Under the pieces are notes generated by a model. That model was not told the DNA's origin, did no database searches, and saw only the letters and a list, made by a program, of their open reading frames with translations. The position numbers and the translations under genes were made by a program. 64,000 bases of DNA from Escherichia coli. Lineage in GTDB: Bacteria; Pseudomonadota; Gammaproteobacteria; Enterobacterales; Enterobacteriaceae. Numbering within the stretch: the stretch's first letter is position 1; every line of letters begins with the position of its first letter. Below are positions 10,993 through 61,055 of this stretch, piece by piece. The DNA lies in the NCBI RefSeq assembly GCF_003790525.1, contig NZ_CP033635.1; one strand, 5' to 3'.

Positions 10993-11499
10993 ATAATATG
11001 CTCTCCATTCATTTTTTTTATGGTTCCATAGAAATCAATACATCAGATAATTCATTTTGATTAAGAACGACTCAGAAAGTATATTTAAAGGTGAATGGCA
11101 AAGCGTGATGGAGATCGCAGATTACTTTTACCCCCGGGTGTGGAGGTATCGTGTTTCAAAAAGTGTGTCGATTTTAAATATCACTCATTGATTTATAAAC
11201 ATTTTTCCTCACAAAAAGAAAATTCAATTCTGTACAAGAATATTTTGTATCTTCTATTACTTTCTCCAGTAATAACTCACCATTCAGGCATAACTTAAAC
11301 CTCTTGTTCATAATCTCAACTTTTGTAAATGAAAACGCACATAAGAGTTAAAATAAACAATGTACTAAAGATTGATTACGCAAAAATGCGAGGCGTCTTC
11401 AGGATTAGAATCGATAAAACAGAATGGGTTAAAGAGAGCGATATAATAGCGGCGGGTGCTTGAGGCTGTCTGTCTCAGGCATTAGCTGAACGGCAGATA

Positions 11500-11560
11500 G
11501 AGAAAAGCCCCGAGTGATATTTTACCATCAACCCGAGGCCCCCTATATGCAGAACACATG
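11500..11560 (-). ncRNA. sokC: sokC antisense RNA of the hokC/mokC type I toxin-antitoxin locus (approximate position)
   Basis: Placed by analogy with K-12, where sokC is antisense to the mokC start; not independently verified from the sequence. Confidence 0.35.
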
Positions 11561-11756
11561 TAGAGTGCCTCTTACTGACCGTAAGGTCAAGGAGAAGAGA
11601 GCAATGAAGCAGCATAAGGCGATGATTGTCGCCCTGATCGTCATCTGTATCACCGCCGTAGTGGCGGCGCTGGTAACGAGAAAAGACCTCTGTGAGGTTC
11701 ACATCCGAACTGGCCAGACGGAGGTTGCTGTTTTCACGGCTTACGAATCCGAGTAA
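11547..11756 (+). CDS. mokC: mokC, overlapping reading frame that couples hokC translation (69 aa)
   Basis: In-frame upstream ATG giving MQNTCRVPLTDRKVKEKRA fused to the HokC sequence. Confidence 0.6.
   Translation: MQNTCRVPLTDRKVKEKRAMKQHKAMIVALIVICITAVVAALVTRKDLCEVHIRTGQTEVAVFTAYESE
11604..11756 (+). CDS. hokC: Hok/Gef-family small membrane toxin HokC (50 aa)
   Basis: Translation MKQHKAMIVALIVICITAVVAALVTRKDLCEVHIRTGQTEVAVFTAYESE; 3' hairpin ggcgggg(agtgat)ccccgcc at 11764-11783. Confidence 0.85.
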   Translation: MKQHKAMIVALIVICITAVVAALVTRKDLCEVHIRTGQTEVAVFTAYESE

Positions 11757-12990: not shown

Positions 12991-13078
12991 CTTTTTTAAA
13001 TTGCCCCTAGATGAATGCACGGGCGGAGAGGAAATTCCCCTTCGCCCGTGTCAGTATAATTACCCGTTTATAGGGCGA

Positions 13079-26732: not shown

Positions 26733-26770
26733 AAAAAAAAAGCCCGCACTGTCAGGTGCGGGCTTTTTTC
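26733..26770 (-). terminator. thr operon attenuator terminator
   Basis: Minus strand: agcccgcacctgacagtgcgggct hairpin followed by 8 U, between thrL and thrA. Confidence 0.8.
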
Positions 26771-26787
26771 TGTGTTTCCTGTACGCG

Positions 26788-26856
<69 letters not shown>

Positions 26857-27753: not shown

Positions 27754-28151
27754 ATTGCCACTCTTCTTGATCAAATAACCGCGAACCGGGTGATCACTGT
27801 CAACTTATTACGCGGTGCGAATTTACAAATTCTTAACGTAAGTCGCAGAAAAAGCCCTTTACTTAGCTTAAAAAAGGCTAAACTATTTCCTGACTGTACT
27901 AACGGTTGAATTGTTAAAAAATGCTACATATCCTTCTGTTTACTTAGGATAATTTTATAAAAAATAAATCTCGACAATTGGATTCACCACGTTTATTAGT
28001 TGTATGATGCAACTAGTTGGATTATTAAAATAATGTGACGAAAGCTAGCATTTAGATACGATGATTTCATCAAACTGTTAACGTGCTACAATTGAACTTG
28101 ATATATGTCAACGAAGCGTAGTTTTATTGGGTGTCCGGCCCTCTTAGCCTG

Positions 28152-39696: not shown

Positions 39697-39850
39697 ATGC
39701 CGGGTGCGGCGTGAACGCCTTATCCGGCCTACAAACCAAGAAATTTCAATACGTTGTGAATCTCCAGGCCTGATAAGACGCGGTAAGCGTCGCATCAGGC
39801 ATTGAGCACCGAATGCGGGATGCGGCGTGAACACCTTTTCCGGTCTACAA
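39697..39850. repeat. REP/BIME cluster (three REP-like palindromic units)
   Basis: Units of the form gccggatgcggcgtgaacgccttatccggcctaca in alternating orientation after the ettA stop. Confidence 0.7.
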
Positions 39851-59363: not shown

Positions 59364-60395
59364 ATGTCTGCATTTACCCCGGCAAGTGAAGTCTTGCTGC
59401 GTCACAGTGATGATTTCGAACAAAGCCGTATTCTGTTTGCCGGAGACTTACAGGATGACCTGCCCGCGCGTTTAGATACCGCGGCCAGCCATGCTCATAC
59501 CCAGCAATTCCACCACTGGCAGGTGTTAAGCCGCCAGATGGGGGATAACGCCCGTTTTAGTCTGGTCGCCACGGCGAATGATGTCGCAGATTGCGATACG
59601 CTGATTTACTACTGGCCGAAGAACAAACCGGAAGCCCAGTTCCAGTTGATGAATTTACTTTCTCTGCTGCCAGTGGGCACGGATATTTTTGTCGTTGGCG
59701 AGAACCGCAGCGGCGTGCGCAGCGCCGAGCAGATGCTTGCAGATTATGCACCGTTGAATAAGGTGGACAGCGCCCGTCGCTGTGGCCTCTATTTTGGTCG
59801 TCTGGAAAAACAGCCGGTATTTGATGCCAATAAATTCTGGGGCGAATATAACGTCGATGGCCTGACGGTCAAAACGCTGCCTGGCGTGTTTAGCCGCGAC
59901 GGTCTGGATGTCGGTAGCCAGTTGCTGCTCTCGACGTTAACCCCGCACACGAAAGGTAAAGTGCTGGATGTCGGCTGTGGCGCGGGCGTACTTTCGGTTG
60001 CCTTTGCGCGCCACTCACCGAAGATTCGTCTCACGTTGTGCGATGTTTCTGCGCCAGCAGTTGAAGCCAGCCGTGCAACACTTGCGGCCAACGGTATTGA
60101 AGGTGAAGTCTTTGCCAGCAACGTCTTTTCTGAGGTGAAAGGTCGTTTTGATATGATCATCTCCAACCCGCCGTTCCACGATGGGATGCAAACCAGCCTC
60201 GATGCGGCGCAAACGCTGATTCGCGGCGCGGTGCGTCATCTTAATAGCGGCGGCGAGCTGCGAATTGTAGCGAACGCCTTCCTGCCTTACCCGGACGTGC
60301 TGGATGAGACATTTGGCTTCCACGAAGTGATCGCGCAAACCGGGCGCTTCAAGGTGTATCGCGCCATTATGACCCGCCAGGCGAAGAAAGGTTGA
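59364..60395 (+). CDS. rsmC: 16S rRNA m2G1207 methyltransferase RsmC
   Basis: 343 aa; SAM-binding [12 protein letters not shown] and NPPFH motifs. Confidence 0.95.
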
Positions 60396-60407
60396 GTATC
60401 CCGCCGC

Positions 60408-60575
<168 letters not shown>

Positions 60576-60695
60576 TTTCCTGATGGACATTTTTCCAGCA
60601 ATTACACCTCCGGCGATAATTAACTATTGACGAAAAGCTGAAAACCACTAGAATGCGCCTCCGTGGTAGCAATTCTTTTTAAGAATTGATGGTAT

Positions 60696-60781
60696 GCGAA
60701 GGTGGCGGAATTGGTAGACGCGCTAGCTTCAGGTGTTAGTGTCCTTACGGACGTGGGGGTTCAAGTCCCCCCCTCGCACCA
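60696..60781 (+). tRNA. leuQ: tRNA-Leu(CAG), copy 1 (leuQ position); 86 nt, one C shorter than copies 2 and 3
   Basis: GCGAAGGTGGCGGAATTGGTAGACGCGCTAGCTTCAGGTGTTAGTGTCCTTACGGACGTGGGGGTTCAAGTCCCCCCCTCGCACCA; 7 C after TCAAGT instead of 8. Confidence 0.85.
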
Positions 60782-60809
60782 AAAACCACGTTGATATTGC
60801 TCGCACTGG

Positions 60810-60896
60810 GCGAAGGTGGCGGAATTGGTAGACGCGCTAGCTTCAGGTGTTAGTGTTCTTACGGACGTGGGGGTTCAAGTCCCCCCCCTCGCACCA
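60810..60896 (+). tRNA. leuP: tRNA-Leu(CAG), copy 2 (leuP position); variable-arm C to T change
   Basis: 87-nt tRNA ending CACCA; GTGTTCTT in the variable arm where copies 1 and 3 have GTGTCCTT. Confidence 0.9.
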
Positions 60897-60930
60897 AACG
60901 AGGCGATATCAAAAAAAGTAAGATGACTGT

Positions 60931-61017
60931 GCGAAGGTGGCGGAATTGGTAGACGCGCTAGCTTCAGGTGTTAGTGTCCTTACGGACGTGGGGGTTCAAG
61001 TCCCCCCCCTCGCACCA
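60931..61017 (+). tRNA. leuV: tRNA-Leu(CAG), copy 3 (leuV position)
   Basis: 87-nt tRNA-Leu sequence with a long variable arm and encoded CCA. Confidence 0.9.
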
Positions 61018-61055
61018 ATTATCTTTACTTCCTTTCTTGTTGCTTCCCTGTTTTA

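Follow-up and report, generated by a model that had tools for sequence, protein, structure and literature searches.

Three tandem tRNA-Leu(CAG) genes, all of them called by ARAGORN, occupy positions 60696–61017 on the + strand of the analysed window, a stretch of 64,000 nucleotides from Escherichia coli (contig NZ_CP033635.1). Judged by its sequence, the locus is the ordinary E. coli leuQ-leuP-leuV operon. In K-12 MG1655 the equivalent genes leuQ, leuP and leuV lie between rsmC and yjjZ/fhuF with leuQ in the promoter-proximal position; therefore, copies 1, 2 and 3 of the window correspond to leuQ, leuP and leuV, respectively. The annotated gene order rsmC-leuQPV-yjjZ-fhuF is the same in the window, K-12, SMS-3-5 and others, and the features expected of this operon, namely three Leu(CAG) genes, rsmC and yjjZ as flanks, and spacers and a promoter of K-12 type, are all present. 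The features of the locus are as follows:

60380–60556, no strand assigned: palindromic elements of REP/BIME type in the interval from rsmC to the operon promoter (Rfam naRNA4)
60627–60654, + strand: sigma-70 promoter TTGACG, 16-nt spacer, TAGAAT (consensus scan 10/12; the same upstream of leuQ in MG1655)
60696–60781, + strand: copy 1, leuQ, tRNA-Leu(CAG), 86 nt, one C short (ARAGORN, Rfam 40.8 bits, position relative to K-12)
60767–60773, + strand: C7 homopolymer of leuQ, C8 in the other copies and in the relatives (sequence reading, alignment)
60782–60809, + strand: leuQ-leuP spacer, 28 nt, identical to K-12
60810–60896, + strand: copy 2, leuP, tRNA-Leu(CAG), 87 nt, isodecoder with a U in the variable arm (ARAGORN, Rfam, alignment, K-12)
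60857, + strand: T (U48 in linear numbering) forming a U.G pair in the variable-arm stem of leuP (copy alignment, structure)
60897–60930, + strand: leuP-leuV spacer, 34 nt, identical to K-12
60931–61017, + strand: copy 3, leuV, tRNA-Leu(CAG), 87 nt, canonical (ARAGORN, Rfam, alignment, K-12)
61018–61055, + strand: unstructured 3' trailer (terminator scan)

The resemblance to the leuQ-leuP-leuV operon of K-12 MG1655 (b4370, b4369, b4368) covers gene order, flanks, promoter, leader, spacers, the T of leuP and the leuV gene. An alignment of 391 nt spanning the -10 promoter hexamer, leader, genes, spacers and trailer contains a single difference, one absent C: the leuQ tract of MG1655 reads C8, that of the window C7. 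Copy 1 is bordered by the rsmC-side leader and the leuQ-leuP spacer (AAAACCACGTTG / AAAACCACGTTGATATTGCTCGCACTGG). A 541-nt query across the locus found matches in 5,425 of 5,426 complete E. coli genomes, where three tRNA-Leu genes and yjjZ are annotated. From the established knowledge of the K-12 operon, we take the hexamers at 60627–60654 to be the functional leuQPV promoter. The three genes would thus share one sigma-70 promoter, their common transcript would be separated by RNase P, and termination would proceed without a hairpin. A terminator scan detected no intrinsic terminator after copy 3 on the + strand, and for the leuQPV transcript both the separation of the genes by RNase P and Rho-dependent termination have been described (PMC2190699). 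Table 1 of the same paper lists the 3' trailer CCAAACGAG under leuQ and CCAAAAACC under leuP, whereas in the RefSeq K-12 annotation CCAAACGAG belongs to leuP and CCAAAAACC to leuQ; this discrepancy looks like a label swap in one of the two sources. As a further side observation, about 585 genomes are without the combination of a T-bearing leuP and the K-12-type spacer, and in O157:H7 records (e.g. NZ_CP066756.1) only the tRNA part (59%) of a leuQ-plus-spacer query is matched, which suggests, as far as such matches can tell, that in some lineages the operon differs in its spacer or in its number of copies.

The REP/BIME-type elements upstream of the promoter score 70.3 bits (60474–60556) and a weak 22.2 bits (60380–60445) against naRNA4, and another intergenic repeat of this type is located at 39767–39845 (naRNA4, 61.9 bits). 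They lie outside the tRNA genes and are context only. Other Rfam matches above the gathering score, at 11454–11606, 12991–13068 and 26733–26852, are sok, tpke11 and the thr operon leader; the sok antitoxin RNA adjoins mokC/hok, tpke11 is found beside dnaK, and all three are expected in this region of the E. coli chromosome.

An earlier note on this DNA had pointed out that the three copies are not identical, and direct reading together with an alignment of the copies bears this out: they are 86, 87 and 87 nt long and differ at two sites in total. The first is a C tract, which reads C7 at 60767–60773 in copy 1 versus C8 at 60881–60888 in copy 2 and at 61002–61009 in copy 3. The second is position 60857 of copy 2, where a T (GTGTTCTT) takes the place of the C found at the equivalent site of copies 1 and 3. 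The note had further taken the K-12 copies to be identical 87-mers, which is wrong, as leuP of MG1655 also carries the T.

The change in copy 2 affects the variable arm, which forms a 4-bp stem (GUCC/GGAC) in the canonical gene and GUUC/GGAC with a U.G pair in leuP; T60857 converts the C48-G55 pair of this stem into U.G, precisely the wobble that had been described. Regarded there as a peculiarity relative to K-12, the base turns out to be the standard leuP allele. It is present in MG1655, SMS-3-5, CFT073, NCTC86, XDL, GN03551, TUM1586 and UID2309220003. An 82-nt query combining the T with the leuP-specific spacer matched 4,836 complete genomes at ≥80% coverage (3,380 of them exactly), as against only 138 for its C version at the same coverage. 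The separation of the two versions depends on an inferred behaviour of the search tool: if low-complexity masking removes the C8 and A7 runs, a 28-nt seed can be placed only within the first 32 nt, so that C and T queries would seed only on copies with the respective base. The T also occurs in Klebsiella michiganensis, in the middle copy of its corresponding triplet. On these sequence comparisons, the T of copy 2 is a normal, long-established leuP isodecoder allele and not a novelty of this genome. The 138 records with C at this site, which keep the leuP spacer and include NZ_CP025268.1, a record labelled K-12 MG1655, reflect an artefact of polishing in repeats or else conversion of one tandem gene copy by another.

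The missing C of copy 1 requires closer consideration. Placement of the sequences onto a class-II cloverleaf indicates that five bases of the C tract form the 3' side of the T stem and the other three open the 3' strand of the acceptor stem, which confirms that the deletion sits at the junction of T stem and acceptor stem. According to the Rfam structure line, the acceptor stem of the canonical gene contains a native A5.C mismatch. Copies 2 and 3 display seven acceptor layers including this mismatch, a 5-bp T stem and a terminal ACCA, whereas copy 1 as written would possess either six paired acceptor layers with A5 bulged or a T stem of only 4 bp. Energies computed on explicit cloverleaves amount to -29.5 kcal/mol for the C7 form with A5 bulged versus -30.0 kcal/mol for the canonical form, i.e. 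a cost of 0.5 kcal/mol. Unconstrained minimum free energy (MFE) folding of the C-bearing sequence returned no cloverleaf for either the C8 or the C7 version and thus cannot be used to rank the copies. The expectation that the deletion should perturb folding is therefore only weakly borne out in energetic terms; any functional defect of a C7 tRNA would rather be sought in the geometry of the acceptor/T stack.

ARAGORN places copy 1 one base off, at 60695–60780, and still assigns it as Leu(CAG). With the Rfam tRNA model RF00005 (Infernal), the per-copy scores proposed as a check in the note are 40.8 bits for copy 1 and 48.5 bits for each of copies 2 and 3; copy 1 is lower yet clearly above the gathering score of 29, and on this measure it is not a pseudogene. 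The loss of 7.7 bits is modest. It constitutes, together with the shifted ARAGORN boundaries, the argument for regarding leuQ as a decaying gene, i.e. a tRNA pseudogene in the making which is fixed in this lineage. This reading is confronted with the facts that the lesion is a single one of 1 nt, that promoter and spacers are intact and the same as in K-12, and that, as detailed below, the lesion is neither inherited from near relatives nor confined to related genomes. We consider it exceedingly unlikely.

The closest relatives over the whole 64 kb are SMS-3-5 (NC_010498.1), XDL, GN03551 and TUM1586. They are nearly identical to the window and carry the T in leuP, but their leuQ/leuP/leuV tracts read 8/8/8 in all four cases and C7 in none, which leaves no lineage inheritance for a decaying leuQ. 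Private to the window relative to these four genomes are five SNPs and two one-base deletions, both within C runs: one at 60773 (C8 to C7) and the other at 28141 (C4 to C3). The comparison set of 5,426 complete genomes excludes the window's own, and the best matches in it over 25 kb differ at three positions. The private SNPs are located at 298, 15219, 35407, 50538 and 59491. A longest-open-frame analysis classified those at 298 (V to L), 35407 (Y to H) and 59491 (R to H, rsmC region) as non-synonymous and the remaining two (15219, 50538) as silent or non-coding. Another genome that reads leuQ-C7, UID2309220003 (NZ_CM142671.1), was considered as close kin owing to 100% identity over 541 nt and rejected, because its flanks are only 97.7–98.8% identical. 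It is an unrelated genome, its flanks diverging from the window by about 1–2%, and the occurrence of leuQ-C7 in unrelated genomes also speaks against a decaying gene fixed in one lineage.

The second private deletion (28138–28141) is non-coding; yjjY ends shortly before it, and arcA follows about 250 nt further downstream. It is shared by none of 5,422 E. coli genomes and may be a private change in the region upstream of arcA or another miscalled homopolymer; as one more lost C, it suggests that homopolymer errors have remained in this assembly. No frameshifted coding sequence was found in the 64-kb window, and both private indels are outside protein-coding sequence. Save for one G7, no C/G run of the window is as long as those of the three tRNA genes, so that any length-dependent process, technical or biological, would hit them first.

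Exact C7 tracts recur in public assemblies. Among the 5,426 complete assemblies, 176 carry C7 in leuQ, 141 in leuP and 163 in leuV, or about 3% per copy. These numbers were obtained with short queries, in which a one-base gap pushes the identity below the 99% band. An apparent deficit of leuV-C7 (seven records) was rejected, as it could be traced to sequence variability beyond the 3' end of leuV (K-12 shows three differences there); the figure of 163 derives from a recount with a 71-nt query ending in conserved flank. Several C7 copies occur in the same assembly more often than expected: the partial lists contain at least 15 overlaps versus 4.6 expected (hypergeometric P = 4e-5), and the combinations of affected copies vary between strains. 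The calls are also batched. The CP027xxx accession series contributes 15/40, 21/60 and 25/60 of the first-listed C7 rows and 1/58 of the rows sampled at even intervals across the whole ranking, the latter figure leaving out two sampled rows which themselves carry C7.

Same-strain conflicts are equally apparent. MG1655 reads 8/8/8 and the K-12 derivative NEB 5-alpha (CP017100) 7/7/8, the two deletions being the sole indels between them in 40 kb; likewise, CFT073 reads 8/8/8 in NC_004431 and 8/7/8 in CP051263. We presume that NEB 5-alpha, CFT073 CP051263 and the CP027xxx series are PacBio-only assemblies; our search for a paper giving the sequencing platform of NEB 5-alpha found none. The window resembles NEB 5-alpha CP017100 and CFT073 CP051263 in lacking one C in the C8 tract of a leuQPV copy; for each of those two strains, C8 is found in a reference assembly. 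The opposite change, C9 in leuQ, was found in 24–27 records that are again clustered in batches, and deletions exceed insertions by about 7:1. A ratio of +1 to -1 changes among indels of the leu tracts was not found in the main text of PMC8510543, so that the deletion bias of the assemblies is not comparable with a true mutational bias.

Outside E. coli, a scan with one genome per species detected exact C7 in only four genomes, those of Kluyvera, Enterobacter sp. EA-1, Kosakonia sacchari and Klebsiella michiganensis. The triplet of Klebsiella michiganensis DSM 25444 reads C7/C8/C7, and a fourth, T-bearing C7 copy is situated elsewhere on the same contig; by its sequence, this genome extends the leuP-type U beyond Escherichia and adds a further assembly in which C7 is called more than once.

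Taken together, recurrence, batching, multi-copy hits and same-strain conflict indicate the signature of homopolymer under-calling. According to published benchmarks (PMC8812927), long-read assemblies retain errors of homopolymer length more often than any other kind, and within repeats these survive short-read polishing. The C tract of the leu genes lies within a four-copy repeat. A miscall in leuQ would accordingly be conceivable as follows: the tract is one of the three longest C/G tracts of the window, it resides inside a multi-copy repeat, and this setting would make its polishing with short reads unreliable. We thus regard it as probable that the C7 of leuQ in the window is an under-call of homopolymer length that exists in the assembly but not in the organism. 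This assignment is based on the 8/8/8 tracts of relatives from which the window differs by only five SNPs in 64 kb, on a C7 frequency near 3% at every copy, as expected of a context-driven error, and on the co-occurrence in several copies, the batch effect, the same-strain conflicts, the excess of deletions and the additional deletion at 28141. Of the two explanations offered in the earlier note, sequencing error is consequently the better supported one through the population pattern of C7, while decay of copy 1 finds no support in relatives that all read C8 and in a single lesion.

The same tract is, however, also known as a genuine slippage hotspot. In mutation-accumulation lines defective in mismatch repair (MMR), 95 of 117 indels in tRNA genes fell into the 8-G.C run of leuP/Q/V/T, a length outlier among tRNA genes, with nearly equal numbers of 23, 29, 25 and 23 per gene across the four leu genes (PMC8510543). 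Cells carrying such tract alleles are viable (PMC8510543). Equal rates per copy are thus expected under mutation as well, and the equal C7 rates as such do not separate error from mutation. The window shares with these lines the tract and the type of change (±1); theirs were verified experimentally in mutator backgrounds, whereas there is no sign that the strain of the window is a mutator. Natural alleles of altered length apparently exist, too. For NCTC86, two independent assemblies (CP019778.1 and LR217818.1) agree on C9 in leuQ, which is probably a real +1 slippage allele of this old strain and implies that real tract-length alleles occur. In LR217818.1, the run of five Gs in the T stem of leuQ also shows a G-to-A exchange, and leuV reads C9.

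A private -1 replication slippage in the leuQ C8 tract of this strain is, on this background, a serious though rather unlikely alternative. It would profit from the dominance of the 8-G.C run among tRNA-gene indels in the MMR-defective lines and the viability of the mutants, from the twofold observation of C9 in NCTC86 leuQ, and from the private branch of five SNPs on which the slippage could have happened. The position of both private indels outside coding sequence fits mutations filtered by selection, the cloverleaf could still form at nearly unchanged computed energy, and the gene still scores 40.8 bits. The product would be a tRNA of 86 nt with an acceptor 3' strand one base short, modelled with A5 bulged instead of in the A5.C mismatch and with six instead of seven paired layers. 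Such a tRNA is probably impaired but would be tolerated, as leuP, leuV and leuT supply the same tRNA. The behaviour of most public C7 calls as artefacts, with their co-occurrence, batches and same-strain discordance, and the C8 of all four nearest relatives argue against a real deletion. Moreover, two private indels, both of them single-C deletions, next to five SNPs would exceed natural indel:SNP ratios, and at mutation-selection balance a deleterious allele of the leucine tRNA that is used most would hardly be expected to reach about 3% per copy.

A more far-reaching scenario would regard the C8 tracts as contingency loci, i.e. reversible slippage switches for the dosage of tRNA-Leu(CAG), of which the window would represent an OFF allele. 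Both C7 and C9 alleles do occur in public genomes, slippage rates at the tract are high (PMC8510543), and its length is exceptional among tRNA genes (PMC8510543). Nevertheless, the variation in the databases appears mostly technical and the tract length is already fixed by structure, as five T-stem and three acceptor bases, and we attach next to no credence to this scenario. The related composite proposal, that C7 is real and that in each of the four tRNA-Leu(CAG) genes the C8 tract acts as a reversible slippage switch between a functional C8 and impaired C7/C9 states, appears very unlikely. If true, natural E. coli would vary heritably and revertibly in the dosage of its most-used leucine tRNA.

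With a homopolymer under-call as the preferred explanation of the leuQ C7, the biological weight of the locus is small: it is a textbook tRNA operon with ordinary explanations for both differences between its copies, and the leuQPV operon, the leuP isodecoder, the hypermutable 8-G.C run and homopolymer errors in assemblies are all already known. A useful by-product is the measured frequency of the C8-to-C7 miscall in public genomes designated as complete. About 3% of "complete" E. coli assemblies show a one-base contraction at each tRNA-Leu C8 tract, and up to about a quarter do so in some batches. Differences between individual tRNA copies at this tract should therefore not be taken as biology without read support; at the same time, the tract is a true slippage hotspot, and a real variant is not to be dismissed on sequence alone.
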